This document shows positions 1-39,710 of a stretch of 64,000 nt of DNA, piece after piece. Position numbers and translations under genes: made by a program. Positions within the stretch are counted from its first letter, which is position 1; each line of letters begins with the position of its first letter. The stretch comes from Desulfosudaceae bacterium. GTDB lineage: Bacteria; Desulfobacterota; Desulfobacteria; Desulfobacterales; Desulfosudaceae. The notes under the pieces are model-generated. The model was not told the origin of the DNA. It saw only the letters and a program-made list of their open reading frames with translations, and made no database searches. The stretch lies in NCBI GenBank assembly GCA_963674745.2, contig CAXXDV010000003.1, positions 2,400,001 to 2,464,000 on the forward strand. The letters are read 5' to 3'.

Positions 1-113
1 CCGTCACCCGCCGGCAGATCAAGCACAAGACCATCACGCAGATATTTTTTAAACCAGCTGCCCACATCATCATGGATGTGACGACTCCTGAATAATCGCT
101 TGATCAGACTCAT
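1..113 (-). CDS. 5' part of a probable class I SAM-dependent methyltransferase (runs off window)
   Basis: Manual translation from ATG at 113: MSLIKRLFRSRHIHDDVGSWFKKYLRDGLVLDLPAGDG; VLDLPAGDG resembles SAM-binding motif I. Confidence 0.6.
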   Translation of the reverse strand, partial: MSLIKRLFRSRHIHDDVGSWFKKYLRDGLVLDLPAGD

Positions 114-230
114 CCGGTTTCTTTCTCTCCAGCATTCACTTACAATAAAATAACAAAATAAACGAAAAAACGTGCTTATTATAGGCGGTATGTATAACAA
201 GACTGCAATTGAAGTGTCAATAGGTTAATG

Positions 231-1321
231 GGGACGCCCTTTATATTTTTATATTTAATAATTCAGACAATACAAACCGCTCCTCACAAACGATTCTCTC
301 CCCTTTTCTAACCGCCAGACTCACTGTCGGCACGGCAATTTTAAGGCCGTCAGCGACTTCCGTCATCGACATGCCCAGTTCTCGCACGCTCCAGTAGCAA
401 ACCAGCGCCCGGCCCTTTACGACGATCCTCTCCTTGGACGGCCCGACCAGGGACCGGCCGGGTATCAGGAGCAATTCTGAAACTGCCGCAACGATATCCT
501 TCATCTGAATCCCATTGACGACCATACGGTATCGGTTGTCCATTACTTCCCGGGCGTCTGCCAAAACCGTATTGACGAAATCCCCGTCGCCCAGGATGCG
601 CTCATCGCTCTTTTGAAAGGTACCTGCTTTACGCTGGGAACGGACGGCTGCCCAGCCACCGGCACTGCGCAACAGGCCACCGCCGATAAGCGCCGGTTGT
701 TTGCCCAGTTCCAGGCCTTTAACGACATGTTCCCGATATCGCTTTCGCGCCGTCGCCTGTCGATCACCAAAGTAAGTCAACACCGCTTTTGTGGCCTGCC
801 AGTCATTTTCGTTTTTCCCCAGAATATAACTATGACCGGCAAAACGATATTTATCCAGCGCGGCCATGTCTTTAACCAGCCTGGCTCGCAAAGGATTTAA
901 ATGGATGTATCGTACCAGTTCTTTTAAGTAGACGTCTTCCTGACAAAGAATTGATTTATACCGGTTCTGGAACAAATGTCCGCTTCTGCGATGACGACGG
1001 TTGTGACTGACGGCATAGCCTGTCAGCAAACGCCGCATGACCGAAGAGATCGGCACACTGCCGGTTTTTAACAATAAATGAAAATGGTTGGGAATCAATG
1101 CCCAGGCAAAACATTGGGTCTGAGTTTCTTGAACCAGTTCACCAAGACGCTCTATAAAGTTTTCCCGGTCCTCATCGTCCCGGAAAATTCTGCCGCGCTC
1201 GATTCCTCTGGCAATGATGTGGTGCACCGCACCCGGTGCGTCTATCCTGGCTTGTCTGGGCATATATTATTCGTATCAGACATTGCATCACCTGTAAATA
1301 TAAAAATATAAAGGGCGTCCC
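231..1321. mobile_element. RAYT-like HUH transposase element bounded by perfect 27-bp inverted repeats
   Basis: gggacgccctttatatttttatattta (231-257) is the exact reverse complement of taaatataaaaatataaagggcgtccc (1295-1321); the left repeat overlaps the last codons (NIKI*) of the transposase. Confidence 0.85.
241..1263 (-). CDS. REP-associated tyrosine transposase-like (Y1_Tnp HUH) protein with probable C-terminal HTH
   Basis: MPRQARIDAPGAVHHIIARG start, HUH motif NHFHLLL, HLFQNRYKS and YIHLNP motifs typical of the IS200/RAYT family; C-terminal LGMSMTEVADGLKIAVPTVS is HTH-like. Confidence 0.9.
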   Translation of the reverse strand: MPRQARIDAPGAVHHIIARGIERGRIFRDDEDRENFIERLGELVQETQTQCFAWALIPNHFHLLLKTGSVPISSVMRRLLTGYAVSHNRRHRRSGHLFQNRYKSILCQEDVYLKELVRYIHLNPLRARLVKDMAALDKYRFAGHSYILGKNENDWQATKAVLTYFGDRQATARKRYREHVVKGLELGKQPALIGGGLLRSAGGWAAVRSQRKAGTFQKSDERILGDGDFVNTVLADAREVMDNRYRMVVNGIQMKDIVAAVSELLLIPGRSLVGPSKERIVVKGRALVCYWSVRELGMSMTEVADGLKIAVPTVSLAVRKGERIVCEERFVLSELLNIKI

Positions 1322-1441
1322 TAACTTACCCGGCTTAGCCAGCAAAATTCATATTGAATAATTATTTTCGGTTATGATATTCTTATAATTATCATTGAGA
1401 TCAAAGGGAGCAAAAATAAAAATTATAGGAGTCAGATAAAA

Positions 1442-1645
1442 ATGCCGCAAACAGTCGAAGAAATAACAAAAGCGATCATCAGCCTATCAAAGGAAGATTT
1501 GGCAAGGCTCCGGAGATGGTACGATGAATTTGAAGCAAGACAATGGGATCAGAAATTTGAAGCAGACGCCAAATCCGGAAAGCTGGATCGGTTAGCGGAA
1601 AAGGCGATCAATGACTTTAAATCCGGGCAATGCAGCCAAATATGA
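1442..1645 (+). CDS. Putative antitoxin of a type II TA pair
   Basis: 67 aa, WDQKFEADAKSGKLDRLA motif, AGGAG RBS, ATGA overlap with the downstream toxin. Confidence 0.75.
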   Translation: MPQTVEEITKAIISLSKEDLARLRRWYDEFEARQWDQKFEADAKSGKLDRLAEKAINDFKSGQCSQI

Positions 1646-1899
1646 AACATTTTGCCAACGCAGATTTTTGGGCATGCTATAAAAAATTACCCTTATCCAT
1701 CCAGGAACTCTCCGATAAAAACTTCAAACTCCTGAAAGAAGACTCAAACCATCCTTCGCTGCACCTCAAAAAGGTCAGTCGTTTTTGGTCTGTGAGAATT
1801 GGAATCAAGTACCGAGCACTGGCCGTAGAGATAAACGAAGGGCTCATCTGGTTTTGGATCGGAACTCACGCCGAATACGACAAACTCATATCATCTTAA
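1642..1899 (+). CDS. RelE/ParE-superfamily toxin
   Basis: HPSLHLKKV...WSVRIGIKYRALA...WFWIGTHAEYDKL; likely start ATG 1642 coupled to the antitoxin stop. Confidence 0.8.
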   Translation: MKHFANADFWACYKKLPLSIQELSDKNFKLLKEDSNHPSLHLKKVSRFWSVRIGIKYRALAVEINEGLIWFWIGTHAEYDKLISS

Positions 1900-1991
1900 C
1901 CACGACTTAAGACAACAAAGCCCGTACCCTACTTATTCCCCTACCACACAGGAAAAGAACAAATTTATAGGAAGGGCGCCCCCAAAACGTC

Positions 1992-2339
1992 CTATTTTCC
2001 GTTATAGATTTCTGCAATTTTTTCAACTTCAGGCCGCTCGAAAAGCCTGCCGTTTACATCCATGATCGGGTATTTATACACCATTGTATTTAATCCTGCC
2101 GTTTCCATCCTGGGCAGCACTTCATCAAGGACTTCCTTTTCTTTTATATTCTCATAATAATAAGGGATATCCCGTTCTTCCAGATCGCGTTCCATCTTCT
2201 GGCACCATCCACAGGCAGGGTTTCCGTACAGAATCACATACGGTTCATCATACAACGGTTCCAGCTTATTGCCCGCAAACTGTTGATACCCGAAATAACA
2301 AAGCACAGCCGCTGCTGCTACAAACAAAAGCTTATTCAT
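1992..2339 (-). CDS. Membrane-anchored glutaredoxin-like protein
   Basis: N-terminal hydrophobic segment, CGWC active-site motif, YPIMDVNG; start placed at MNKLL after GGGAG. Confidence 0.75.
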   Translation of the reverse strand: MNKLLFVAAAAVLCYFGYQQFAGNKLEPLYDEPYVILYGNPACGWCQKMERDLEERDIPYYYENIKEKEVLDEVLPRMETAGLNTMVYKYPIMDVNGRLFERPEVEKIAEIYNGK

Positions 2340-2498
2340 GCTCCCCCCCATTCAAAACACTTTTACGTAATATGCAAAATCATAGCTGCTTTCGAAAAAT
2401 ATATGTGAACCGCTCTGGCAGGTTTATCGTTTAAAAAATTTTACGAAAAATCATAAGTGGCAGCAAAGCCATGGAATCATCAGGGGTTGAAAAACATC

Positions 2499-2524
2499 AA
2501 ATATAAAAATATAAAGGGCGTCCC
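2499..2524 (-). repeat. Copy of the RAYT end motif abutting a stop codon
   Basis: aaatataaaaatataaagggcgtccc, identical to 1296-1321, immediately beside the TAG of 2525..3193. Confidence 0.9.
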
Positions 2525-3193
2525 CTATTTGTCCATAGCCTCATTGGCCATACCCAATTTATTGTATAACAATATCAGGTTTTTACGTTTATCGTTGTTT
2601 TCAGGGTCTCTTTTTAAAACATCTTTGTAACACTCAATTGCCAACCCAATATTTCCCATTTTTTCGTATACAGAAGCCAGCACACCATAGCTATTCAAAT
2701 AATCGGGCTCAAATTGAATTGCTTGTTTCAAATGCGCTTCTGATTCTATAAGGTTACCGTTATTATAATAATAGGTTCCCAAGAAATAATGGGCCATTCC
2801 ATTCTTATTATCTAGCCTAATGCTAATCATTAACTCTTCAATTTGTAGTTTCTCTAAATCTTGCATTAAACTCAAATTATCACTAACTTCAACCTCCTTA
2901 TTGTTTTCATTCTTTCCTTTTGAGAAAAAATCATAGAGTTTCAATGCTCTGTTTTTATCGAAAAGCTCTAAATGCTTATAAAAATAAGCAAGGCTTAGAT
3001 TGTAATGAACGATAGCCACCTCAGGATTTATTGTAATTGCCTTTTCATAGACTTCTATCGCACGATCCCATAATCCCTGATGAACAAAATCATTCCCTTG
3101 ATTAAGTAATGCTTCGAACTCATCAGGTGCTGCGTTTAAGCTGGATAGGAAAAAAACAAAAAAGTATAGTATAAAAATACAAAATATTCTCAT
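2525..3193 (-). CDS. Exported TPR protein, putative partner/immunity of orphan CT 3265-3756
   Basis: Signal peptide MRIFCIFILYFFVFFLSSLNA, TPR helices (AIEVYEKAITINP; AHYFLGTYY); lies directly downstream of the orphan CT. Confidence 0.7.
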   Translation of the reverse strand: MRIFCIFILYFFVFFLSSLNAAPDEFEALLNQGNDFVHQGLWDRAIEVYEKAITINPEVAIVHYNLSLAYFYKHLELFDKNRALKLYDFFSKGKNENNKEVEVSDNLSLMQDLEKLQIEELMISIRLDNKNGMAHYFLGTYYYNNGNLIESEAHLKQAIQFEPDYLNSYGVLASVYEKMGNIGLAIECYKDVLKRDPENNDKRKNLILLYNKLGMANEAMDK

Positions 3194-3264
3194 TTCTTTA
3201 CCTCTTTTAAACTTGAAAGAATAACAGAATCCCAAGGATCCAAACAATTATTTAACTTCGTTTA

Positions 3265-3756
3265 TTACTCTAAAGTTAAAGGGTTACAACAATCTTTTCG
3301 ACCTTTAAGTGTTATTTTTTCACATGTTAAATGAGAGCTATGAATATTCTCTTCTCCAGCGGTAACTGTAACATCATGAGGAAATGGCCATGGATCATAA
3401 CAAATAGTTCCAGGTTTTAGAACCCCACATTCTATTTTTCTTTCTTCCTTATAAATTAAATCCATTGCTTCAGCAGAAGAACTTGTATCCGCAGAATACT
3501 TCGTGAAAAATATGATTATGTCAAGACCGTCACCAGGTTGAGCCGTTGGCGTAGAGTCAGCCAAGCCATTGAAATCTTTTGAATTATGTGGGTTATTAGA
3601 CACATATGCATAAGAATTAGTCTTTACTTTGATGACAGAATTAATAATTCTTTGTGTGTAGATCGGATCAACCCTCAGATACCTTCCAACACCCGCATTA
3701 TAGTATCTATGGTAATTATAATGCAACCCCGTCTCTTCATCATAGTATTGGCCCGG
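3265..3756 (-). pseudogene. Orphan Rhs core + C-terminal domain (cassette 1)
   Basis: Frame PGQYYDEETGLHYNYHRYY...RYLRVDP...DFNGL then a unique Cys-rich tail; in-frame TAA at 3796-3798 and no ATG upstream of PGQY. Confidence 0.85.
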
Positions 3757-4160
3757 ATATACTTTGATGCAGGTTACCTCCCGAAGACCTGTTTTTTACC
3801 CCCCTTGTTTTGTTGGTTGTTGGAAATAAAACTGTTCTTTATGGGTTAAAGGGAAAGGGGGTTAAAAGATGCAGAAGCGTATCCATTCTATATGGTCGTT
3901 GGGCAAAAAACCGTCACCCACCAACACAAACAAAACAATTTCTTCTTTTTATATCAAAAATATATCTTGAAATATAAAAATATAAAGGGCGTCCCTAAGT
4001 CCTATATCAGGCCCCGGAGTGGAAATTTGCTCAGAGTGCGTAGAGATCTGCAGTGAAATCGTTCAAGACCACAGGGAACCTAAACCGTAACATGTGGCTG
4101 TCGTGCAAGAAAACCGTCACCCACTAACACACAAGAAACGCATAAAAGCATAGACGTCCA
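3757..4160 (-). repeat. Cassette leader copy 1 (mosaic, includes RAYT end motif at 3970-3995 and second-type end at 4133-4159)
   Basis: Shares gacctgttttttaccccccttgttttgttgg, ggtcgttgggcaaaaaaccgtcaccca and aagaaacgcataaaagcatagacgtcc with the other leader copies. Confidence 0.85.
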
Positions 4161-5495
4161 CTATTCGTTCCCCAACTTGTTGGCTTGGTCCGACCCCGGT
4201 TCCGGTTGGTAATCTCGGACTGGCCAAACATATTGTTCCTCATTAATTTCGACTACATTGCTTTCCCCTCCAAACATCCTTACGGTCCATGCTTCCAATC
4301 TTATGCCTCCCCCATTTATTGGTTTTAAAAATCTAAAGGACGTGCTTGTCCAGTAACTGCCATCGGGTTCTAATAGAAATGGATCACCTGCTGACCATTT
4401 AGAGGTTCCAGATGTATCGGAAAGACAAGGTGAGTGATATGCCATGTTTCTCAAACTTTCCAGTTCAAAAAGATTCGGGAGCCTCCAATCCCCAGTTTTC
4501 GATTGATCTGTCAAGCCGCACTGACCGCTCTGAAGCGATTTACAAAAATCGACAGCTTCATTCCATGGAGCTGGCCCTGTTTCACCTTTTGCAGATCGAT
4601 AGTTGGCTCTTTTTAACCATACCAACCCTGTCAAATTATCAGTTACTGTGCCATTTGAGTTATCCGTAAACCGAGGAAACGGCAATCCCATGCCCTTCTT
4701 TTCATCCCCATCATCACCAGTTCTGTATTTGATTTTCTGCCCTGTCCGCTGAATGGATATAATTGAAGCGATATTGGATTCTTTATCACGAACAGGCCAA
4801 GCTAGACGATGAATACCTTTGTCGAGTGCATTTACGCTTCCTTTAGATATAAAAACATCCCAAGCGCAAGATGGGTCATGCGAACTTGTAGTGCTTGACC
4901 AATAGCCACCAGATAATAGAAAAAACGGATCGCCTTTTTGCCATTGAGAAGTTCCAGACGTATCGGAAAGACTAGGGTCGAGATATGCCATATCCCGCAA
5001 ACTCTCCAATTCAAAAAGATTCGGGAGCCTCCAATCCCCAGCTTTCGATTGATCTGTCAAGCCGCACTGATTGCTCTGAAGGGATTTACAAAAATCGACA
5101 GCCTCATTCCATGTCACCCGGCCTTTTTCACCTGTTGTAGATCGATAGTTAGCCTCTTTCAACCAAACCAACCCGGTTAAAATATCTGTAATGGTTCCAT
5201 TTGAATTGTCTGTAAATCGGGGGGAAGGCCATACAATACCTTTTTTTTCATCCCCATCATCACCAGTTCTGTATTTGATTTTCTGCCCTGTCCTTTGAAT
5301 GGATCTGATTAAAGCAACATTGGACTTCTTTTTAAGATTACTATCTAAAGATTGAATATTGACTGAGTATAGCTGTTTAGAGATTGCGAACCCCGTCAAA
5401 TCATTCCAGGCGGCCCAAATTACGATTGTTAAGGCAATAACCAACATAGATCTCTTTAACAAAAAAGAGAAAGCTTTTTGAAACATTTTCGACAA
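4161..5495 (-). CDS. Membrane-anchored tandem DUF1566 (Lcl C-terminal-like) protein, partner of orphan CT 5519-6175
   Basis: Two RFTDNSNGT..D.LTGLVW...DWRLPNLFELESL...YW.ST...WPVRD domains; 546-bp DNA repeat (4405-4762 vs 4951-5308); N-terminal TM. Confidence 0.85.
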   Translation of the reverse strand: MSKMFQKAFSFLLKRSMLVIALTIVIWAAWNDLTGFAISKQLYSVNIQSLDSNLKKKSNVALIRSIQRTGQKIKYRTGDDGDEKKGIVWPSPRFTDNSNGTITDILTGLVWLKEANYRSTTGEKGRVTWNEAVDFCKSLQSNQCGLTDQSKAGDWRLPNLFELESLRDMAYLDPSLSDTSGTSQWQKGDPFFLLSGGYWSSTTSSHDPSCAWDVFISKGSVNALDKGIHRLAWPVRDKESNIASIISIQRTGQKIKYRTGDDGDEKKGMGLPFPRFTDNSNGTVTDNLTGLVWLKRANYRSAKGETGPAPWNEAVDFCKSLQSGQCGLTDQSKTGDWRLPNLFELESLRNMAYHSPCLSDTSGTSKWSAGDPFLLEPDGSYWTSTSFRFLKPINGGGIRLEAWTVRMFGGESNVVEINEEQYVWPVRDYQPEPGSDQANKLGNE

Positions 5496-5518
5496 TTGAT
5501 TCTCTATGCTCCTGTTGT

Positions 5519-6175
5519 CTATTTACAAGATATATGTTCTTCTTCTCCACAATAGGGCGACAAAAATGTTTTCTGCATCCATTTACCACCACCCCCCATA
5601 CATTCAAATCTTACAGTTACCCCTTCATCTTTGCAACACCCTGTTTGGCAAATTGTATTGGCCTGCTTTATAGCTTTACCCCATAAATCCTCAGCCCCCT
5701 CACCTACATCAACCTCATTATTTGGAAGCTCTACATCTGGGATCGGGGTCTCTACGGTTGTATAGTGTTCCGCATTGCATCCATAGGAAGTGGCGGCAGA
5801 GCATGAATCATTATATACTGTCACGGGAATGTTCGATTGGTCTAACTTTACTTTATCGTCCTGGATTCCTGGATCAGCCACATCCAAGTTGCGGATTCCG
5901 TGACCAAAAAATATTATAACATTACATTTCTCAACCCTAATATAATGAGAACCATCGGCATTCTCATACACACCATATCCTTCACCTGTAGTGCCTTCGC
6001 CCAAAAATCCTGCAGGGTCACTAATGATATTGGGATTATTAAACGCATATAAAAAAAGATTAATCCCTCCATTAAACCCAATCGGATCAACCCGCAAATA
6101 CCTCCCCGTCTTCGGATCATAATACCGCCACATATTATAATGCAGCCCCGTCTCACTATCAAAGTACTGGCCCGG
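5519..6175 (-). pseudogene. Orphan Rhs core + C-terminal domain (cassette 2)
   Basis: PGQYFDSETGLHYNMWRYYDPKTGRYLRVDPIG...NNPNIISDPAGF then a unique Cys-containing tail. Confidence 0.85.
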
Positions 6176-6385
6176 ATATATTCTGATGCGCCTCCCCCCC
6201 GAAAGACCTGTTTTTTACCCCCCTTGTTTTGTTGGCCCCCGGATGAACTTCTTTTTAAAGATATGACAATTTACCATATGGTCGTTGGGCAAAAAAACCG
6301 TCACCCACTAACACACAAAAAAAAAGAAAACGATATAAAAAGAGGTGCTTAACATCGGATAAGTTAATAAGTTAAGGGCGTCTCC
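6176..6385 (-). repeat. Cassette leader copy 2
   Basis: Near-identical to 11408-11506 and 9813-9920; degenerate end motif aagggcgtctcc overlaps the stop region of 6372..7136. Confidence 0.85.
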
Positions 6386-7136
6386 TATTCGTCTCCTGTA
6401 ACTTTTTATTGATCAAATCAAAATATAGCTCGGGAACAGATTCACCTTGGTCCTTGGCTTTTGTTAAATAATTCAATGCTTCTTTATAATCCCCAACATG
6501 ATAAGAACAAACACCCAAATCAAATAAAAAAAAGCTTGAGGATTTACCCCACTTAATCAATTCTTTTAACTCATGCCTTGCATTGATGTAGTCATTATTT
6601 TTTTTATATATCTTTAATAACTTCTCACGCAATACGGTATCAGAAGGATTTATTAGTAAATATTTTTTACAAAATTCTTTTAACTCTTCCTGAGTCATAT
6701 TTGCTTTTAATGATTCTAAATCCTTTTTAGGAAATACGAACACTTCCGTATCACTTCTCATCGTTGAAAGCAACTCATATTGTTTTATACCCTCTGAAAC
6801 ACCTTTTGCCTTAAACACAGCATACATTAAATTATAGTTTAATAAATAGTTATTAGGTTCTATCTTTAGTCCCTCCTCATATATCTTAATAGCATTAACA
6901 AGATCTCCAAGTTTTCTTTCATACAGATTTCCTATTTTAATATATAAATCTATTTTCGTGGGTTTGTATTTTAATGCGTTATTATATTCAAATATTGCTT
7001 CTACAAACCTCTTTTCTTCTTCTAATCGACTTCCTTTCTCAATATACGTCCATTCATCTACATAAGTGTAAGCTTTAGTGCTCGACACAAAAAATACTAA
7101 ACACATTATACTCATTATTAAATATCGTTTTGTCAT
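6372..7136 (-). CDS. Exported TPR protein, partner of truncated cassette 3
   Basis: Signal peptide MTKRYLIMSIMCLVFFVSSTKA; TPR motifs AIKIYEEGLKIEP and LGVCSYHVGDYKEALNYL. Confidence 0.75.
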   Translation of the reverse strand: MTKRYLIMSIMCLVFFVSSTKAYTYVDEWTYIEKGSRLEEEKRFVEAIFEYNNALKYKPTKIDLYIKIGNLYERKLGDLVNAIKIYEEGLKIEPNNYLLNYNLMYAVFKAKGVSEGIKQYELLSTMRSDTEVFVFPKKDLESLKANMTQEELKEFCKKYLLINPSDTVLREKLLKIYKKNNDYINARHELKELIKWGKSSSFFLFDLGVCSYHVGDYKEALNYLTKAKDQGESVPELYFDLINKKLQETNRRRP

Positions 7137-7172
7137 GATAATCTCTCTTTAATAATTATTCTCGCCTTATCA

Positions 7173-7360
7173 TTAAAATGGTATATTATGCTCTTTTTTA
7201 TATTCTTCCGTCACAGGTGGCAATGGATCTAGCACAAGTGTTTCATACTTTTTTTCTGTATTGGCTGTTACAGGATATTCTGTCCCTTTAATTTTTGTGC
7301 ACGATTCTTGAGGCAAGGCAAGATGGCTCAAACATGTTTCCACCCAGCATTCGAATAAAG
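7173..7360 (-). pseudogene. 3' remnant of a probable orphan Rhs CT cut by IS66 (cassette 3)
   Basis: Open frame from the IS end: LFECWVETCLSHLALPQESCTKIKG...KKEHNIPF*, ending 36 bp before the TPR gene; position matches the other cassettes. Confidence 0.6.
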
Positions 7361-7386
7361 GTAAGCGTCAAGTTAACCCCACCCCA

Positions 7387-8979
7387 TCAGGTCGGGGAAC
7401 TCAGAGCGGCTGGATCGAGGTTTTGCGGCAGTAGTTTCTTGTATTCTTCCGGATCACCGTCGATCAGTGGAAGCTGCTCAAAGATATATCGCAAGTACGC
7501 ATAAGGTTCCAGCCCGTTCGCCTTGGCCGTTTCGATCAGGCTGAAGATGGCGGCGCTGGCGGCCGCACCCCGGGGATGCCCGGAAAATAACCAGTTCTTT
7601 CGTCCCAAAACAAAGGGCCGAATGGCGTTCTCCACCAGGTTGTTATCGGGTCGCAGACGTCCGTCCTGAACATAGCCGGTCAGCCGGTCCCATTGGTCCA
7701 GAGTGTAATTGATGGCTTTTCCCAGCAGTCCTTGAGGCGGTGTCTGTTGACTGCGTTTGTCCAGCCACTTTTTAAAAGATTCCAAGATTGGCAAGACCTC
7801 AGCCTGTCGAAGCTCGCGCCGTTGATCCGGGGAAAGTTCCGCTTTATCGGCTCGGCTTTCCACTTGGTACAGTTTGCCGATGAAACTCATGGCCTTTTCC
7901 GCGCTGCCGGGTTTCTGCGGCTTCCCTTTTTTTACCGGCTGACGGGCCTTAATCACTTCATGAAACTTACGGCGTGCGTGCGCCCAGCAGCCGATGTGAA
8001 TAATATTGGAGGCTTGCTCCAGGCTGTTATAACCTTTATAACCATCAGTCTGGATATAGCCCTCGTAGCCGTTTATGAAATTCTTAGGAACCTCTCCGGA
8101 TCGCGTGGGGTGATATTGATAGATCAGCGCCGGTTTATCCGGATCACCTCCGCGGAAAACCCACATATAGGATTTGCTGGTATTATTCCGGCCGGGCTCA
8201 TTCAAAACCTGAACCGTGGTTTCATCCATGCCGATCAATGGACCGGATCGGATCTCTTGGCATAGGCCGTCAATCAAGGGCTGACACCTTTTTGCCGCCT
8301 GAATGGTCCAGTTGGCCATGGTAGCCCGGGGAAGATCGACCCCGATCCGGGTAAACTGCTTTTCCTGGCGGTAAAACGGCAGGCTGTCGGCAAACTTGGC
8401 TGTCAGGATATGGGCTATCAGGCCCGGTGTGGCGATGCTTTGCGGAATAAGTTGCGGCGGTAGCGGCGCTGTCTTGACTGCTCCTTGTTCGGATTCTACG
8501 CCTTCACATTGTTTGCAAGCGTATTTGTATCGAATATGGCGAATAACCTGTACTTTGGCCGGAATAACATCCAGTTTCTCGGAAATGTCTTTGCCGATAC
8601 GGCTCATTTCACAGCCGCAGGCGCACATCTTTTCTTCTTCCGGAATATCGTGAATAACGTCTATGCGCGGCAGGTCATCAGGCAGGGGCTTGCGACCGCC
8701 TTTTTTCCTGGAATGCCCGGTAACCGCTATCTTTTCTTCTTTTTCGTCGGCATCTTCAGCAATATCCTCGGCCTCGTCAAACAGGGTCATCTGCTTGTCA
8801 TCGGTGTCAATTATGTGCTTTTCTGATTTTTTGCCGAACAGCTTGGCTCTTAGAAGACGATTCTGTTTTTCTAAATGCTCAATACGGGTATGCTGAAATT
8901 GAATCAATTCATTGTCTGACTGAATGACTTTATTGAGATCTTTTATGGTATTCTGAAGTTGTGCAGACTCACTGTTCAT
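7387..8979 (-). CDS. tnpC: IS66 DDE transposase TnpC
   Basis: Coiled coil, CACG...CKQC zinc finger, DETTVQV, QTDGYKGY, CWAHARRKF, DNNLVENAIRP, ETAKANGLEPYAYL. Confidence 0.95.
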   Translation of the reverse strand: MNSESAQLQNTIKDLNKVIQSDNELIQFQHTRIEHLEKQNRLLRAKLFGKKSEKHIIDTDDKQMTLFDEAEDIAEDADEKEEKIAVTGHSRKKGGRKPLPDDLPRIDVIHDIPEEEKMCACGCEMSRIGKDISEKLDVIPAKVQVIRHIRYKYACKQCEGVESEQGAVKTAPLPPQLIPQSIATPGLIAHILTAKFADSLPFYRQEKQFTRIGVDLPRATMANWTIQAAKRCQPLIDGLCQEIRSGPLIGMDETTVQVLNEPGRNNTSKSYMWVFRGGDPDKPALIYQYHPTRSGEVPKNFINGYEGYIQTDGYKGYNSLEQASNIIHIGCWAHARRKFHEVIKARQPVKKGKPQKPGSAEKAMSFIGKLYQVESRADKAELSPDQRRELRQAEVLPILESFKKWLDKRSQQTPPQGLLGKAINYTLDQWDRLTGYVQDGRLRPDNNLVENAIRPFVLGRKNWLFSGHPRGAAASAAIFSLIETAKANGLEPYAYLRYIFEQLPLIDGDPEEYKKLLPQNLDPAALSSPT

Positions 8980-9047
8980 AATGGTTTACATAACAAAACC
9001 ATCATGCAATGTCAAGCCTGTTTTATGATTATGTAGTAATTTTTTAC

Positions 9048-9401
9048 TTAAATGACTGTGGAATATTGAAGCCTATCATGTCCCCGAACCTGGGTAATCT
9101 CAAGTCCGTCCAGCAACCACCCCAAACGCCGGGAACCGATCTCCATAACCTCATCATACGACTCTGGCCAGCGAAATTTTTCTTTCTCCAGACGCTTGTG
9201 CCATAGACAAAAACCGTTCCGATGCCAGTATAATATTTTGAGGATCGTTCGACGCCGATTGCAAAAAACAAATAAATGGCCGGAAAACGGGTCAAGTTCA
9301 ATCTGGCCTTCCACCATAATGGACAGGCCATTGATGGATTTTCTCATATCCGTATGACCCATCACCAGAAAAGCCCGCGTTTGGCTGGGAAAGAACATCA
9401 T
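9048..9401 (-). CDS. tnpB: IS66 accessory protein TnpB
   Basis: TDMRKSINGL...LFVFCNRRR..LKILYW..NGFCLWHKRLEKEKFRWP. Confidence 0.95.
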   Translation of the reverse strand: MMFFPSQTRAFLVMGHTDMRKSINGLSIMVEGQIELDPFSGHLFVFCNRRRTILKILYWHRNGFCLWHKRLEKEKFRWPESYDEVMEIGSRRLGWLLDGLEITQVRGHDRLQYSTVI

Positions 9402-9727
9402 CGCCGGTCCACTACTTCCAGAACCTGCTCCAGAACCAACGGCTGAAATCCTTCGGATACTTCTATCCGGTATCGGTTATTAACGACCAGGCTTAACGGT
9501 GCGGACGGCATGGCTTGCGGCAAGGAAATCGGAACCAGGGAGACATCTGATGAAACCGGTTGTTCGAACTTTTTCTTCCAGTACACAAATTGCCATTTAG
9601 ACAAATTGTTTTTTCGCTGATATTCCGTCTGGCTCAGGCCACTGGCCCGCCACATCTGAATATGCCGTTCCCAGAACCGTCGTTTCTCCGCTCGTTCCTG
9701 TTCGCGGTTAATTTTCTTGTTTTTCAT
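9398..9727 (-). CDS. tnpA: IS66 accessory protein TnpA
   Basis: W..HIQMWRASGLSQTEY...QFVYWKKK HTH; ATGA-type overlap with tnpB. Confidence 0.9.
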   Translation of the reverse strand: MKNKKINREQERAEKRRFWERHIQMWRASGLSQTEYQRKNNLSKWQFVYWKKKFEQPVSSDVSLVPISLPQAMPSAPLSLVVNNRYRIEVSEGFQPLVLEQVLEVVDRR

Positions 9728-9812
9728 AATAGCGCCTTTCCGAATTAAATTTTTGGCGCTATCTTGACACGGTCCGCCCGGCTTGTGAAGATGGGGTTAA
9801 TTTGACGCTTAC

Positions 9813-9962
9813 TTTTTTTTACCCCCCTTGTTTTGTTGGCCCCCGGATGAACTCTTTTCTCAAGATATGATAGTTTACCTTAGGGTCGTTGGGCAAAAAA
9901 ACCGTCACCCACTAACACACAAAGAAACCGAAGAAACGCATAAAAGCATAGACGTCCCCATT
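9813..9962 (-). repeat. Cassette leader copy 3 (truncated by IS66)
   Basis: ttttttaccccccttgttttgttggcccccggatgaact...ggtcgttgggcaaaaaaaccgtcacccactaacacac...cataaaagcatagacgtcccc. Confidence 0.9.
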
Positions 9963-9969
9963 AGTCTTC

Positions 9970-10758
9970 CTATTTCTCCCCTAAATATTTCTGAGGCATT
10001 TCGTTAATATCCTTCCTAACGATTTCAATATTAAGGGGCAAAGCAGGCACTTTTATGCTGGACAATGACTTTAGTAAATCCTCTTTTAACTCACGTAATT
10101 TATTATATCTTGATAGGCTAACATTAAATAACAGCTTAGCTTCATCGTTACTATATATATCCGCTGAAGCATAATAATACCTCTTTCTTTCCATTTTATA
10201 TATCATGCAAGTAGCTTTGAGCGACTTAGAATCGATAATATACATACCAATTAATTTACCCACATTAAGGCTCATAAACTTAAAATGCTGATAGGTCCAT
10301 GCCTGTTTATTTTTATTTCTTGCATTAAAGATAGAGATATCGCTTGGGACCGATTTCAGAATCGCCGCTTTTTCTCGGAAGGAAGAGAAACTTATTGAGC
10401 CCCCGCCTTCAATTGTGTCTATCGATTCTTTTTTAGATCCGGTATATGAGACTATGAATGCACCTTTTTCAGAAAAGAAATAAACGCGATCCCCCTCACT
10501 AAATACTTTTTTATATTCCAACTTCGGAACTTTAAAGAAAAATCCGCCAATGTTTAACTCATTCCATTCTTCAGACGTTACGTTTACAGCACTCACACAG
10601 ATTGGAGTTACGCTTAATTGTTCATTTATGTAATCACCAAGCGTTCTCTTGACATGCCAGTTATATTGTAAAACAGGGAAAAAATACCAGATAGAGGCAG
10701 TCAATACGATAGATAGCACCAATGAGAGGCTGATGAACTTTTGATGTTTTATTTCCAT
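9970..10758 (-). CDS. Membrane-anchored hypothetical protein, partner of orphan CT 10832-11407
   Basis: 262-aa AT-rich ORF with an N-terminal TM, directly downstream of the CT. Confidence 0.65.
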   Translation of the reverse strand: MEIKHQKFISLSLVLSIVLTASIWYFFPVLQYNWHVKRTLGDYINEQLSVTPICVSAVNVTSEEWNELNIGGFFFKVPKLEYKKVFSEGDRVYFFSEKGAFIVSYTGSKKESIDTIEGGGSISFSSFREKAAILKSVPSDISIFNARNKNKQAWTYQHFKFMSLNVGKLIGMYIIDSKSLKATCMIYKMERKRYYYASADIYSNDEAKLLFNVSLSRYNKLRELKEDLLKSLSSIKVPALPLNIEIVRKDINEMPQKYLGEK

Positions 10759-10831
10759 AGGATTATTAGCCTAAAATACAACAATACATTTATTGCAAAA
10801 CCGTGACGCAAAATAATGTTATTGCCTTGTT

Positions 10832-11407
10832 TTATTCACAACCAAAAGATTTATATAACTCTTGCGGGAATTCAAAACCCTTTCCTGCTTGGCATTCTGA
10901 CAAAGATTTAACACATTTTTCTCGACATCCTTGTTCATCAAAAGGCGCACTATTATCTAAATAAGCGTAACAACTTCCTTTTGCATTTCTACAGTTCTCG
11001 TTGCATGTTTGTTCAGCAATCATACATGTTGAGGAACGAGACCAAGGCACCTTTGATCCCGCCTTGCAAGCCTTCTCCTGTATTCTCATACTATTACATT
11101 CAGGTGCTTCAGGCACTTCGGACTCCGATGAGTCTTCCTCCTCTTTTTGTTCCTCAAGCCATGGTAAATACTCTAGTTCATATTCAGGTGGCATTAGACA
11201 AGAGGCCCCCCCATTTGCAGTCGGCACACATGTATCTAACCCTAATTGATCAAAGTATCGATTGGGATTATTTAACGCATATAAAAACAAATTAACACCA
11301 CTTGTTAACCCTATCGGATCAACCCTCAGATACCTCCCCGTCTCCGGATCATAGTACCGCCACATATTATAATGCAGCCCCATCTCCTCATCGTAGTATT
11401 GGCCCGG
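10832..11407 (-). pseudogene. Orphan Rhs core + Cys-rich C-terminal domain (cassette 4)
   Basis: PGQYYDEEMGLHYNMWRYYDPETGRYLRVDPIG...NNPNRYFDQLGL then a Cys-rich tail. Confidence 0.85.
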
Positions 11408-11908
11408 ATATATTCTGATGCGAGTCCCCCATAAAGACCTGTTTTTTACCCCCCTTGTTTTGTTGGCCCCCGGATGAACTTCTTTTTAAAGATATGACAA
11501 TTTACCTTTCAAATCAAATGGTCTGTGGCAGTTAAAAAAGAAAACAAATCGGGTGAAAGCGGCTCCAGTATGCCGGAGATGATCTGCTGCCATTTTCTGG
11601 GCAGGCCGGTGTAGATGGTTTTCAGCCGTTTACGACGAGCTTCGTATTCCAGGCAAATATTTTGTACGGCAGGACTCGAAGCCACGGCGGAACAAACATC
11701 ACAACCACCTTACCCGCACGGCTACAGGCGAGGTCGGCCGGCAGAATGGGTGCGCTTCAGGGGGCGTTTTTTTGACCATAAGATTGATCTGCTTCCTTAT
11801 GGTCGTTGGGCAAAAAAACCGTCACCCACTAACACACAAAGAAACCGAAGAAACGCATAAAAAGATAAACGTCCCCATTATCCCTTTGCAAATGTAAAAG
11901 GCGTCCCC
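11408..11908 (-). repeat. Cassette leader copy 4 with a 290-bp insertion
   Basis: Same leader blocks; extra DNA between CCTT at 11505-11508 and CCTT at 11795-11798; end motifs at 11849-11876 and 11890-11908. Confidence 0.85.
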
Positions 11909-11920
11909 AACTTTACAACT

Positions 11921-12265
11921 TTACGTTGGACTAAGTAATCCCATTAAAGAAACAGCAATAAGTAAAATAACTACCACGGCTCTAACATAAGCTCCCATAT
12001 TCTTAAAAAGAACAAAAGGGGGTAGCCATAACCATATTTTTGAATTTATCCCGTCACCAATCATTAACCATAAAGCTAATACAATGCAGAACATCATTTC
12101 AAAAACGTCAAAACAATGCGACTCATAAACCCCTAATAAGAGAATATGTTTATCACGCACAAACCAGTACGAAACAATACAGATTGTAGGATATAAAATG
12201 AAGATTAACATCATTACCACAACCAATGCTTCTAAAGTTGTAGATAAGGCAAGACTCTTTTTCAT
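11921..12265 (-). CDS. Small multi-TM protein, probable cognate partner/immunity of full-length Rhs
   Basis: 114 aa with about 3 hydrophobic segments; first listed ORF downstream of the Rhs gene. Confidence 0.6.
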   Translation of the reverse strand: MKKSLALSTTLEALVVVMMLIFILYPTICIVSYWFVRDKHILLLGVYESHCFDVFEMMFCIVLALWLMIGDGINSKIWLWLPPFVLFKNMGAYVRAVVVILLIAVSLMGLLSPT

Positions 12266-12586
12266 TGTTTAGAGGTACTCCGCTATTAGTGTCCAATTAA
12301 CCTATTCATAAGTCGTATAAATTTTTCTAAGCAAAAGGATGTGCTTCACGAAATCAATATTTAACAATCGACGTCTGTGACACAGTGTTAGAAACGCGAT
12401 AACTTCAAATCTAGATCGCAATAACCGTTAACATCTGGTTGCCATTACCAAAACAGATTACAATAAAAGTTAATCTTCAAAACAATTTGGCATTAAAGAA
12501 ATACCTATTTTACAAACATTCACAAATCACACTTACAAAAGGAAAATTAATAATGGCCCCATCGTTTAAATTTATCCGCATCTGCT

Positions 12587-15500
12587 CTATGAATAATTCG
12601 TGCCCTCTTTAAGCGACCAATGGCCGGTTGTCGTCATAGCGCCAAGATCAAGCCCTTTACTCCATCCTTTGAATCTTAAATAAGCTTGCGGGGTGTTGAC
12701 CCAGAGATGGCCATAACTCGAGCGGACACCTACCCCCCAAGAAGTTGCTCGTCCAAAACCAACGTGCTCCTTTAAAGAGATACAAGGCGTATCAAACCAC
12801 TGACCATCTCCAGATACAATAAAAGTTGGTACATTCTTAAATGAAAAGCCTATCCCTATTCCTACATATTGATAATCACTTCCCTGTATACAACATCTCT
12901 CTGGGTCTGCACGGAGCTCAGCATTAATTACCACACCGCCTGTTTCAATCGTAGCGCCGATAACAGAAACGATAGTCAGCCGCCATCTATCACAGTAACC
13001 GGCTTCACATAGGCCTAAAGAATCAATATTATTTATACTATTATTTGAGGCATAGGCAAAAATACTACTTCCTTTATCCGAATCAACCGGATCAACCCTC
13101 AAATACCTCCCCGTCTCCGGATCATAGTACCGCCACATATTATAATGCAGCCCCGTCTCCTCATCGTAGTATTGGCCCGGGAACCTCAGGTTGTTCTCAA
13201 CCGTATCAACCTCAACCGTTGCCTCCCCAAAGCTACTGTACTTCGCACTCCAGACCACAGCCCCGTTACTTGATGTCAGCTTCTGCGGTGTACCCAAGTG
13301 ATCATTGTGGTAGAAGAAGTAAGTACCACTTTCTCTCATGAACAAAGGATCGGTTCCCCAGGTGCCACCCGGCTGCCAGCCGTAGGTTTTATCCACATTA
13401 CCGTAAGAATCAATTTCAGCTACCAGACCTTCATCACTGTAATGATAGTAAGTCGTGGTACTTCCGACGGTCTTGCTTAATCTTCTGCCAAAGGGATCGT
13501 AATAATAACTGGCAATCAAATTATTCGAGTCGTCTCTGACTTCAGTAAGCCGGTCTTCTACATTGTAGACGTAATTTGTGACAACTCCAGCAACCGTCTT
13601 TTTGATGGTGTTGCCGTTGTCGTCGTACTCGTAAACAGCGTCCCCGGTTGAGTCGGAGGATGACTGAAGTTCGTTGTTGAAATTATAATCCCAATCACTG
13701 GTGCTATCCTCTGTGGTCAAGCGGTTGCCCACGTTATCGTAAGTAAACTCCTCGTCAGTCAGACCGGCGGCTTCGGGGTTGTCAACATCCGTCAACCGGT
13801 GCAGGGCATCATATTCATACCCATAATCCCCGTGCTCGGTGGCTTTGGAAGTGATGTTGTCCATTGTGTCATAGGTGTAGTCATAATTCAACAGGTCGTT
13901 TCCGCCCGGATCTTTGCCGATGATCTGTTTTATCCGCATCAAGGGATCATATTCAAAGGCCCTGGCACCGCCGCCGGGCAGGGTAAAGCCGGCCGGCCGG
14001 TTCCAGTTATAGCCGTTGACGGTCAAAAATCCAATGCCGGCGGGCATCTGAACCCCGGCCAGGCGATTGGCCGTATCATACATGTAGGTGTAAGTGACGT
14101 TGTCCGGGCCGGTAAAGGTTTTTTTAAGGCCGTTTTTTAGATGGGTGTAAGTATTGGTCCAGCTATAAGAGCCGTAAGTAACGGTCTCGCTGGTCTTTCG
14201 GCCGGCGTTGTCGTAGACATACACAGCAGATGTCGTACCGTCATTGTAACCGTCGAGATTACCCGCATCATCATAGGTGAAGCTGACGGTCTTGACCAGG
14301 GTGAGCGATGCGTCATAATAACGGGTTTCATCCAACTGGCCGGCATTATTATAGTCATATTCGGTTTTCTGGTCTTTGGCATCGATCTTTTCGATCAGGT
14401 TGCCCATCAAGTCATAATCATAAGTCGTTATTTCACCTTCGGGCCGGGTCTCTTTAGCCAGCCGGTTGTTGCCGTCATATGCAAACGCGGTGGTATTGCC
14501 CTGGGCATCGGTCAAAGAAGTCATATTATCGCGGTTGTCATAGGCATATGCCGTCTGCCCCTGGTTTGGATCCGTTACCCGGACCAGCCGGTTCAAGGCA
14601 TCGTATTCATAATACGTGATCTGGTTATCTTTGTCTGTTTTTTCGATCAGGTTGCCGGCCGGATCGTATACAAACCGGGTTTCTAAAGTTTCCCCCTCGG
14701 GAACAATCACCTGCTCGGCGATTTTTCTATTGCGTTCGTCATAGACAAAGGCTTTTTCAAAAGTGGGATAAGTGACGCTGATGGGTTGGTCGGCCGTGCC
14801 GCCACACGATGTACAGCCGCCTTCCGAGCTGACGGGATCATACTCGGTGACGATTTCATTGCCGGCAGGATCGATGGTTTTAACCCTTCGGCCGCGAGAA
14901 TCGTAGGCATATTCTGTGATAGCGCCCTCAGAATCAATCATCTTCACCAGTTTGTTGTCAAAGCCGTATTCAAAGGTGGTAATAATATCTTTTGAAGCGT
15001 CGGCCGGGTCCATGACCACGGTCTGCTTGATCATGTTGCCGAGCATATCATATTCAAACAGGGTTTCGGTTAAATCCGGGGCGATCTGCTTTGTCTTTCT
15101 CCCGCCAAAATCATACTCATACCGGGTAACTTTGTGTTCGGGATCTTCGGCGGTAAGCAAATTACCCATAGCATCATACGTATATGTCCAGACCAGGTCA
15201 TCACCATCAGGGTTTTCAACGGTTTTGGTCAGCACATTACCCATGATGTCATGGATAAAACGGGTGGTGACCGCCTCTCCTTCGGCATCGGTGGTGATGG
15301 AAGTCTGGTTGCCGTCGGGATCATAGGTCATGGTGGTAACAATATCAGACGTGCCCAGGATACGGGTTTCAATCAGGTGGCCGTTATTGTAAACGTATTG
15401 GGTGGTCCGCTCTTCGGTTGTGCCCACGGCCTCGGTTTTGCTGGCCCGGTTGCCCTGACTGTCATAGGTATACGCGGTAACAATACCGTTTTCATCAGTC

Positions 15501-39303: not shown

Positions 39304-39563
39304 TCCCCCACCCTCTAACCAGAACGCAAGTATACGCACAAGATATTGTAATATAGAACTTTTTTTCTCCCCCGAGAAAAATAGATGCGTTTAAGCAACT
39401 AAAGTATAGTTCAAATAATATTTTCAATACTAAGTCAAGAATTTTTTAATCCATTTACCTTGATTCTACTTGAACCGGTACTATTTTTATAAAATTCACC
39501 TTAAAAAACGAACCATTAGTCGAAAGATAAATTTATCGTAATTTTGGGGGATTTTGTACTTTT

Positions 39564-39710
39564 GGGGACGTACTTTTGGGGACGCCTTTAATATTTCTAT
39601 ATTTAGCCCTTGGCAATTCCTCTCTATTGTTACGTATAAAATGGTTATAGAACAATGCTATCTGAAAAAAAAATAATCACCAAATATAAGAATATAAATA
39701 TGGGGTGCCC
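39564..39710. repeat. Degenerate inverted pair of RAYT end motifs (empty, non-autonomous element)
   Basis: ggggacgcctttaatatttctatattta (39578-39605) and aaatataagaatataaatatggggtgccc (39682-39710); extra ggggacg at 39564. Confidence 0.7.

Follow-up and report, generated by a model that had tools for sequence, protein, structure and literature searches.

A predicted tip-displacement Rhs array in a Desulfosudaceae genome with junctions of TIRtron terminal repeats and primase/Xer-like element borders

A 64,000-nt stretch of the genome of a Desulfosudaceae bacterium (GCA_963674745.2, contig CAXXDV010000003.1, positions 2,400,001-2,464,000; hereafter the window) holds a full-length rhs gene followed by a row of orphan toxin tips. 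Judged from its sequence, the locus is a tip-displacement Rhs array in which the cassettes are set apart by a composite junction, made up of the terminal inverted repeat (TIR) of a TIRtron, that is, of a Y1 transposase gene bracketed by such repeats, and of two borders of primase/Xer-like recombinase elements. The change of tips in Rhs and other polymorphic toxins has long been inferred to proceed via circular intermediates, and neither an enzyme nor a defined cassette border has been tied to it. The locus and its relatives offer defined borders, namely a TIR at each cassette end and then a two-part junction matching the ends of primase/Xer elements. They also offer two candidate enzymes for tip movement, the Y1 transposase and the Xer-like recombinases, which can be distinguished by the position of circle joints. 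The source genome (G000; 5,546,839 bp, with contigs C1, C2 and C3) was compared with related genomes (G001 onward), 41 of them for domain matches and 40 for cassette DNA; within the genus, a single other species had a sufficiently complete genome. Positions without a contig name are those of the window.

All genes of the array lie on the minus strand. The full-length rhs/YD toxin gene (25951..12587) encodes a 4454-aa protein with beta-helix, fn3, Ig-like, RHS repeat and RHS core domains (Pfam RHS_repeat 4.7e-63, RHS 2.2e-16, fn3 and Beta_helix) and with the attached C-terminal tip (CT) CT1. It is the last gene of an operon with genes for 3815-aa RTX-repeat, rhodanese-domain and transglutaminase-like proteins. 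A hydrophobic membrane open reading frame (ORF) of 114 aa (12265..11921), which has no match in Pfam or NCBIfam, is by its position a candidate for the immunity protein of CT1. A first-pass annotation, made from the letters alone, had described a fourfold row of units, each with a constant leader, the Rhs core from PGQY, a unique CT and a partner gene, behind the full-length gene, with one copy truncated. This row was confirmed by ORF calls and core alignment. The core shared with the main gene is 92-93 nt long, starts with CCGGGCCA and ends with GGGTTGATCC, and lies at 13180-13089 in the main gene and at 11407-11316, 6175-6084 and 3756-3665 in the three intact orphans, which diverge from the main gene behind it; the fourth orphan is cut by an IS66-family insertion. 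Each tip is followed by a partner ORF with a putative immunity role, assigned to the TPR or Lcl_C families or matching no family.

Cassette 2 (10832..11407) consists of the core at 11316-11407 and CT2 (ORF 11383..10832), and its partner of 262 aa (10758..9970) has an N-terminal membrane segment and no family match. The remains of the truncated cassette (6372..7343) consist of a CT reduced to its final ~56 codons (7343..7173) and of a 254-aa TPR partner (7136..6372); the rest of its leader, its core and most of its CT were taken out by the IS66 insertion (7361..9815, with tnpA 9727..9398, tnpB 9401..9048 and tnpC 8979..7387; Pfam DDE_Tnp_IS66 8.6e-103, TnpB_IS66 2.1e-39), which is 99.6% identical to a solo copy at C3:1147050-1149504. 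Cassette 3 (5519..6175; core 6084-6175, CT3 ORF 6133..5519) is followed by a 444-aa partner with two Lcl_C (DUF1566-type) domains (5495..4161; Pfam Lcl_C 1.5e-44), and cassette 4 (3265..3756; core 3665-3756, CT4 ORF 3726..3265) by a TPR partner listed with 240 aa (3247..2525), for which an ATG with a ribosome-binding site near 3193 is the likelier start. The cassettes have a G+C content of 28-44% compared with 50% genome-wide. Two of the three full IS66 copies in the genome (window 7361-9815 and C3:45462-48083) are found in cassette junctions, at different points.

Ten sequences from the window and from a second array on C1, eight orphans and two full-length genes, were aligned over leader and core. 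The switch from leader to core falls at the identical base in all eight orphans, and both main genes are without the orphan leader and have coding sequence at that place. The leader announced as constant was thus present in every aligned orphan and absent from the main genes, but it proved to be a composite rather than one piece. Its parts are, in order, a TIR behind the partner gene, a piece of ~40-55 nt around GTGGGTGACGGTTTTTTTGCCCAACGACC (p1) and a piece of ~110 nt leading into the core (p2); p1 and p2 meet around GACCAT. The TIRs belong to several subfamilies, designated A, B, C and so on. Junction J1 (11408..11920, minus strand like the others) contains a diverged TIR-A (11882-11907), a TIR-B-like copy (11849-11876), p1 (11801-11840) and p2 (~11420-11504), and its part at ~11505-11800 is what remains of a primase/recombinase element, with pieces of both its left and its right end. 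In J2 (9816..9959), TIR-B (9932-9959) and p1 (9884-9923) precede a p2 cut by IS66 at ~9815, and in J3 (6176..6385) TIR-C (6361-6385) is followed by p1 (6280-6319) and p2 (~6190-6273). J4 (3757..4160) is the most complex, with TIR-B (4134-4159), a truncated p1 (4105-4134) with an alternative continuation, then TIR-A as a solo copy (3970-3995), p1 for a second time (3894-3928) and finally an alternative middle piece up to the core.

Fifteen copies of p1 were located in the genome by blastn-short: five in the window, five in the C1 array and five at other sites, of which three lie behind toxin-partner modules, one behind an ORF of 1804 aa and one against a truncated ISL3 transposase ORF. Four sequences continue p1, namely p2, the left-end sequence of the primase/Xer elements ('ext'), the alternative middle piece and a fourth sequence. 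These four alternatives indicate that the 3' end of p1 is a recombination point. On its other side, p1 is fused to TIRs of subfamilies A, B, C and D across G000, G001, G002, G010 and G012. A metagenome scan for p1 gave two matches, one in a coding region that was taken as chance and one real junction of TIR and p1, in which the TIR is a fifth variant. At least four TIR subfamilies fused to p1 cannot be explained by inheritance of one ancestral junction.

The elements in question are ~9 kb long, with genes for an XRE regulator, for a primase of the DnaG type (885 aa) and for two tyrosine recombinases that are XerC/D-like (Phage_integrase). Two lie on C3 (C3:2707384-2716841 and C3:2718433-2720852), and a third heads the C1 array (C1:1422644-1426896). 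Their order is p1 with ext, XRE gene, primase gene, two recombinase genes, a terminator-like hairpin, a p2-like sequence, core, CT, partner gene and TIR with p1. The order recombinase gene, hairpin, p2 and core was also observed in G002, G003 and G006, which makes four genera in all. Comparison of J1 with these elements revealed left-end pieces matching C3:2716698-2716617 and 2716475-2716441 and a post-recombinase piece matching C1:1422416-1422247. J1 is devoid of recombinase genes and resembles a scar at C1:1419720-1419283 (91% identity over 438 nt). Because the element borders match p1 and p2 and J1 holds element remnants, we infer that p1/p2 would be the attachment region of the primase/Xer elements and J1 a deletion derivative of one of them.

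The overall layout corresponds to that of published orphan-tip Rhs loci. In the model of Jackson et al. 2009 (PMC2935791), tips are displaced via circular intermediates with a crossover of the circle in the core, and Poole et al. 2011 (PMC3150448) treated orphan rhs-CT/immunity modules and discussed their loading by recombination after duplication. As in the loci covered by the available text of these papers, a full-length rhs gene is followed in the window by core-bearing fragments with unrelated CTs and one small downstream gene each, and the layout is what one crossover between a circle and the core would produce. The first-pass annotation had proposed the integration of circles that push the old tip downstream; the geometry fits, and the idea, rather than being new, is that of the published model as far as its available text goes. 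RecA-dependent exchange between repeated cores and junctions might even suffice by itself, through unequal crossing-over, circles excised between two cores or uptake of foreign arrays, with TIRs, TIRtron, IS66 and recombinase elements as passengers in an AT-rich region that is dispensable and subject to horizontal exchange. This explanation needs only the repeats that are seen (Jackson et al. 2009 and Poole et al. 2011, in the text available), and the core of CT2, with 98.7% identity to the main core over 77 nt, agrees with an exchange that was recent. The arrays also contain several mobile elements unrelated to one another, which suits this explanation too. It leaves unexplained, however, why all eight aligned orphans share one leader-to-core switch base, why at least four TIR subfamilies stand at one place before p1, and why p1 and p2 coincide with two recombinase-element borders in four genera. 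Taken together, we regard exchange by repeats alone as fairly unlikely. Unlike the orphan-tip loci as published, the orphans of the window have a sharp common 5' limit of the core and a non-coding junction, absent from the main gene, with TIR and recombinase-element borders. The words 'transposase' and 'insertion sequence' do not occur in the available text of Jackson et al. 2009 or Poole et al. 2011, nor does 'integrase' in that of the latter.

The account that we tentatively prefer, at somewhat less than an even chance, is that recombinase elements deliver the cassettes, homologous exchange then acts on them, and the TIRs are co-resident repeats serving as breakpoints. Primase/Xer elements carrying cassettes would integrate at p1, and their recombination module would later be deleted, J1 being such a scar. 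RecA-type exchange in core and junction would shuffle the tips and load them on the main gene, a crossover in the 92-93-nt core installing the new tip and shunting the old one downstream, after Jackson et al. 2009. The Y1 gene is that of an intact TIRtron, and the TIRs at the junction heads behave as breakpoints at which unrelated partner genes are joined to the junction. If the link to the Y1 gene is incidental, the locus would still be a clear case of recombinase elements bringing toxin tips into an rhs array.

Several observations weigh against delivery by recombinase elements. Identity between the direct repeats on either side of the recombinase element is only 84% (170 nt); by this measure they are not fresh att duplications, and the element ends cannot be fixed within tandem arrays. 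The ORFs of window positions 1-13200 include no tyrosine recombinase. In J2 and J3, p1 is joined straight to p2 with no element remnant, which fits an empty site and leaves the arrival of the cassettes unexplained. This account also gives no reason why at least four TIR subfamilies in four genera, plus the fifth variant, stand before p1, nor why Y1 genes frequently follow rhs loci (see below). No excision or integration product was seen. Of ten public sequencing runs, two from the source organism contain 0.95 of the sampled words; the contigs of the four runs that were compared with the locus break at repeats, and the joints found were short-sided repeat joins or sequence of other organisms, so that they give no verdict on circles or variants. 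Delivery is favoured by the lower G+C content of the cassettes and by the finding that none of the window cassettes is shared at the DNA level with the 40 relatives (E <= 1e-25); with no cassette shared, the ends of the mobile unit could not be read off, which counts against a dedicated Y1 system. At this threshold only the TIRtron, IS66, leader pieces and a glutaredoxin-like gene matched relatives, the leader pieces being common to six of the 40.

At the C3 end, primase/Xer elements stand in tandem (C3:2705001-2720852; L004), each with a cassette of a second YD core type (…GYRYYSAE.GRW…). Similar junction sequence was found at the end of C2 (C2:130385-131627) and near the start of C3, and the assembly probably breaks in these junction repeats. 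A tRNA or tmRNA as the junction attachment site was rejected, since ARAGORN detected none in window positions 1-30000 or in loci L001, L004, L005, L006 and L024. In L001 and L004, Rfam (E <= 0.1) revealed no known RNA family in the junction; one sub-threshold psRNA2 match (L001 4674-4847; 32.8 bits against a gathering score of 65, E = 1.7e-4) lies just 3' of the C1 rhs gene.

The array ends at the TIRtron (230..1321, minus strand), in which the gene for a Y1/HUH tyrosine transposase of 340 aa (1263..241) lies between inverted TIR-A copies at 1296-1321 and 231-256, with its stop codon inside the right TIR. The protein matches Y1_Tnp (Pfam, 1.3e-10), and the motifs NH[FAV]H (HUH) and YIHLNP are invariant in all nine aligned homologues. 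Its residues 255-320 resemble weakly a Bac_DnaA_C-like tail (E = 0.0014, 19 bits against a cut-off of 31.5), and its score on the NCBIfam model REP_Tyr_transpos, 68.9 bits, is below the cut-off of 80. Four copies, spread over three other genomes, are homologous to it at the DNA level, and this homology starts and stops at 230 and 1321, within 3 nt. These limits at the TIR heads define the TIRtron as a discrete unit of 1.09 kb. The transposase homologues in related genomes (45-79% identity) are each bracketed by inverted repeats of ~26 nt, with a constant head GGGACG[CT] and a tail that varies by subfamily. Matches to the family were present in 31 of the 41 relatives, with up to 16 per genome, and six Y1_Tnp matches were found in the source genome, all on C3. 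A further 79 loci of the family were collected from other species with flanks of up to 8 kb per side, the upstream flank reaching 4 kb or more in 52 of them. Exact inverted repeats of at least 12 nt occurred at 43 of the 58 testable loci, and 39 of these 43 contain GGGAC or GGGGW.

These features agree with those of TIRtrons, RAYT-like Y1 genes between non-palindromic TIRs with small repeat families (Di Nocera et al. 2013, PMC3733652; RAYT, repetitive extragenic palindrome (REP)-associated tyrosine transposase), whose transposases, the TIRYTs, match subclass 2.1.2 of TnpA_REP, which has a Bac_DnaA_C-like tail (Quentin et al. 2018, PMC6006769). In common with TIRtrons as presented in the available text, the window element has HUH and Y---NP motifs, a long C-terminal tail that may resemble a helix-turn-helix and GGGG... 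TIRs as singles, dimers and clusters. It differs from them in the TIR head, GGGGACG[CT] (GGGGACGC/T in the window), which is one position (position 7) off the published majority GGGGWSAS. It also differs in the solo TIRs fused to p1 at toxin-cassette borders and in the recurrence of Y1 genes behind rhs-immunity modules. 'Rhs' does not occur in the available text of either paper, and 'toxin' occurs once in that of Quentin et al. 2018 and not in that of Di Nocera et al. 2013. Folding of TIR-A, TIR-B and TIR-B with p1 as DNA, on both strands, gave no structure beyond that of shuffled sequences (z -0.78 to +1.20), and a hairpin or attC-like structure of the motifs was therefore rejected. A REP-type RAYT was likewise rejected, with no hairpin, no GTAG tag and only four TIR-A and 22 TIR-B copies, all clustered. 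The RAYT/REP identity given in the first-pass annotation did not hold: by motifs and repeats the transposase is a TIRtron/TIRYT enzyme, and the known REP-nicking biochemistry cannot simply be carried over to it. As in REP/REPIN-RAYT systems, the Y1 enzyme is paired with a short repeat of its own, and the repeat of its paralogue occurs in inverted doublets 67 nt apart; unlike there, the repeats are non-palindromic, have no GTAG tag, and number four and 22 rather than hundreds, clustered near the genes or in toxin junctions.

The TIR-A motif GGGACGCCCTTTATAT (16 nt) has exactly four copies in the genome, at 231(+), 1321(-), 2524(-) and 3995(-); with up to one mismatch there are five copies and with up to two mismatches 12. 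The copies at 231 and 1321 are inverted around the Y1 gene and the other two lie behind partner genes, the solo copy at 2499..2524 (minus strand) directly 3' of the stop codon of the CT4 partner. All four are identical over 26 of 26 nt and are the sole such copies in the genome. The proposal that the array ends in a Y1/HUH transposase whose end motif marks cassette borders was in this respect borne out, and so was the related GGGACG-type motif, which is TIR-B (GGGGACGTCTATGC...) and opens the leader at 4134-4159, 9932-9959 and 11849-11876. The third subfamily, TIR-C (6361-6385), had been missed. It overlaps the stop codon of the TPR gene and has one mismatch to the TIRs of loci L104 and L107; a cognate transposase is absent from the source genome and present in L044, L104 and L107.

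TIR-B corresponds to a paralogous transposase (C3:1589265-1590254, 51% identity) with its own TIR, GGGGACGTCTATG[AC]TTTTATGCGTTTCT. A profile search of the genome (E < 0.05) gave 22 copies of TIR-B, of which 11 open toxin-locus junctions and 11 lie within C3:1554616-1592060 around the paralogue, where they are spread over ~38 kb between ordinary genes as three singles and four doublets, the doublets being inverted with 67 nt between the copies. All seven of these ordinary-gene sites have one head right behind a co-oriented gene, at -14 to 102 nt from the 3' end of that gene. The position of a TIR behind a partner gene consequently needs no cassette-specific explanation, and the presence of the family behind ordinary genes also suits the view of TIRs as passengers in exchange by repeats alone. 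The motifs were not scattered over the genome, TIR-A being confined to 231-3995, whereas TIR-B is not restricted to cassette borders.

The set around the paralogue is a low-copy, locally clustered, REPIN-like family. A TIR-A-like copy whose head is duplicated in tandem over 14 nt (39579..39604, plus strand, in the region 39555-39604) lies upstream of the RTX-rhs operon, opposite in orientation to the array TIRs. Similar head duplications were seen beside TIRtrons in G001, G007, G009 and the metagenome locus L111.

The TIR heads themselves bear on a further explanation, in which TIRYT enzymes cut and rejoin one strand at co-oriented TIR heads, excise a single-strand circle consisting of TIR, p1, p2, core, CT and partner gene, and reinsert it at another TIR. 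This would be a HUH counterpart of attC x attC and attC x attI recombination, with exchange in the core subsequently loading the tip. All cassettes of the window end in a TIR, with TIR-A at 2499-2524, 3970-3995 and 11882-11907, TIR-B at its three sites and TIR-C at 6361-6385. At a TIR head, three partner ORFs unrelated to one another share their final 12 nt, GG[AG][AG]ACGAATAG; in the CT3 partner the final three codons and the stop lie within the 12-nt GGGAACGAATAG abutting the TIR. Together with the TIR at C3:45466 that abuts the truncated ISL3 transposase ORF, these common ends indicate that the TIR head is a joining point. The fusion of unrelated ORFs to the same 12 nt is again left unexplained by exchange between repeats alone. 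The four identical TIR-A copies unique to this stretch, and the four or more subfamilies fused to p1 that one ancestral junction does not explain, fit the cutting of TIR heads as well. On the other hand, the TIR-B heads behind ordinary genes at seven of seven sites point to a general habit of the repeat family, the TIRs do not fold, unlike REP, the ends of IS200/IS605 or attC, and the available text of Di Nocera et al. 2013 and Quentin et al. 2018 contains no TIRYT biochemistry.

The gene order rhs, CT, immunity gene, (TIR), Y1 gene on one strand recurs in related genomes. Among 25 RHS-domain matches in 15 of the 41 genomes, five are followed within 4 kb by a Y1 gene of the same strand, at distances of 1.6-3.3 kb, compared with 0.043 expected from copy numbers and genome sizes (Poisson P = 1.2e-9, the genomes being kin and the ORF calls those of this analysis). 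The search suggested in the first-pass annotation, for rhs genes with this type of transposase in other genomes, thus revealed co-occurrence above chance. The distance from rhs to the downstream Y1 gene of the window is 12 kb. Transposase orthologues with at least 72% identity and usable context follow a YD toxin-immunity module in three of three cases. In G007 (C1:975-985 kb) an orthologue comes after a teneurin-like YD protein and a small membrane ORF, in L061 an rhs gene and an 83-aa ORF are followed by a partly duplicated TIRtron, and in G017 a TIRtron lies inside an rhs gene amid many co-oriented TIRs. The excess and the same-strand bias of the downstream Y1 genes speak for movement by Y1 enzymes and are not accounted for by RecA-dependent exchange alone. 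Conversely, an Rhs gene was found in the flanks of only one of the 79 TIRYT loci from other species, which shows that the family is not dedicated to rhs. Moreover, other insertion sequences are present in the arrays (IS66, a 582-aa transposase-like ORF, and remnants of ISL3 and of other transposase-like genes) and the association count covers Y1 genes only. A search of the literature, lacking most subscription journals, gave no paper linking Y1 transposases to rhs tips among those listed, in part as judged by title and opening of the abstract, in line with the statement of the first-pass annotation that no such link had been described. An H-rpt/ISAs1 element is present at E. coli Rhs loci.

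Homologous arrays provide a second comparison. The array at C1:1.408-1.423 Mb has at least six orphans and TIR motifs, and that of a congener (G002:C13) has TIR motifs as well; neither contains a Y1 gene. Homologous arrays thus carry the motifs, as the hypothesis of Y1-driven movement had it, but not the transposase. With TIRs in arrays devoid of Y1 genes and all six Y1_Tnp matches on C3, the Y1 enzyme would have to act in trans. Both arrays have conserved intergenic motifs and, unlike the array of the window, are headed by a tyrosine recombinase. The idea that the transposase moves the cassettes therefore gains from TIRs of three subfamilies in the window and from the five rhs-Y1 pairs, and loses by the arrays without Y1 genes, the rival Xer-like enzymes and the single Rhs gene at 79 loci. 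On balance we consider excision and reinsertion by TIRYT enzymes unlikely, and a catalytic role of the Y1 enzyme in cassette movement putative. If it were true, the link would offer a possible role for the TIRYTs, a branch of the RAYT superfamily to which no function has so far been assigned, and, if exchange is driven by Y1, the missing enzyme for the circular intermediates of rhs tip displacement. As the circle joints to be expected differ between the three readings, the question can be put to a direct test.

In the C1 region (L001, C1:1404001-1424000) the full-length rhs gene is on the plus strand and converges on the minus-strand orphan array. Behind this gene, p1 has plus-strand orientation and is cut short at the 3' end, as would result from an inversion with its breakpoint at p1. 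The 582-aa transposase-like ORF interrupts this array. At two paralogous rhs loci of G037 (L028 1201 and L029 6781), different tips and partners are followed by an identical 45-nt TIR-bearing sequence, which also fits movement by Y1 enzymes. After it comes a TIRYT gene at one locus and a different Y1 gene (39% identity) at the other.

The C1 and G002 arrays are similar in layout to the rAID arrays of Bacteroidales, orphan immunity arrays headed by a tyrosine recombinase and with conserved intergenic motifs (PMC12247911, in its available text, citing the original report). Unlike in rAID as described there, the toxin tip and a core fragment are kept, so that the cassettes are loadable on rhs, two Xer-like recombinases and a primase are encoded, and the phylum is another. 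The window array is without a recombinase, and the likeness of the C1 and G002 arrays to rAID is one of layout. Integrons share with the window cassettes that lack promoters, point the same way and each have a short conserved site at the end, and one TIR-bounded segment of the window with a toxin-antitoxin pair adds to this likeness. Chromosomal integrons also carry toxin-antitoxin pairs. In contrast to integrons, there is no IntI among the genes scanned (the Xer-like genes elsewhere in the genome reach 107-127 bits on the integron-integrase model, with a cut-off of 265), the sites have no attC-like folding, and tips would be loaded by homology in the coding core rather than at an attI site.

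The TIR-bounded segment of the window (1442..2351), between two co-oriented TIR-A copies, contains a glutaredoxin-like ORF (2351..1992, minus strand; Pfam Glutaredoxin 7.1e-5, NCBIfam Uxx_star below cut-off) and a ParE-like toxin-antitoxin pair (1442-1645 and 1630-1899, plus strand; Pfam ParE_like 1.2e-5). Toxin-antitoxin pairs between co-oriented TIRs, here and in L044 and L054, are in keeping with movement by Y1 enzymes. In its widest form, this idea has TIRYT enzymes using co-oriented TIRs as cassette borders and excising and reinserting single-stranded DNA, as a HUH-based counterpart of integrons that would trade Rhs tips with immunity genes and toxin-antitoxin pairs; we hold this to be quite unlikely.

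At the three unrelated loci a solo TIR and the left TIR of the TIRtron, in the same orientation, enclose a segment of ~0.9-1.2 kb that holds a type II pair, ParE-like in the window (1442-2524), MazE-type with PIN in L044 (7014-7938) and ParE with DUF6290 in L054 (6991-7944). YoeB/YefM pairs adjoin solo TIRs in L084 and L107. Extra TIR copies were found in the flanks of 23 of 65 TIRYT loci, mostly upstream and co-oriented. The partial tandem duplication of the TIRtron in L061 (7084-9030), behind an rhs-immunity module, consists of a TIR with 283 codons followed by a TIR, the full gene and an inverted TIR.

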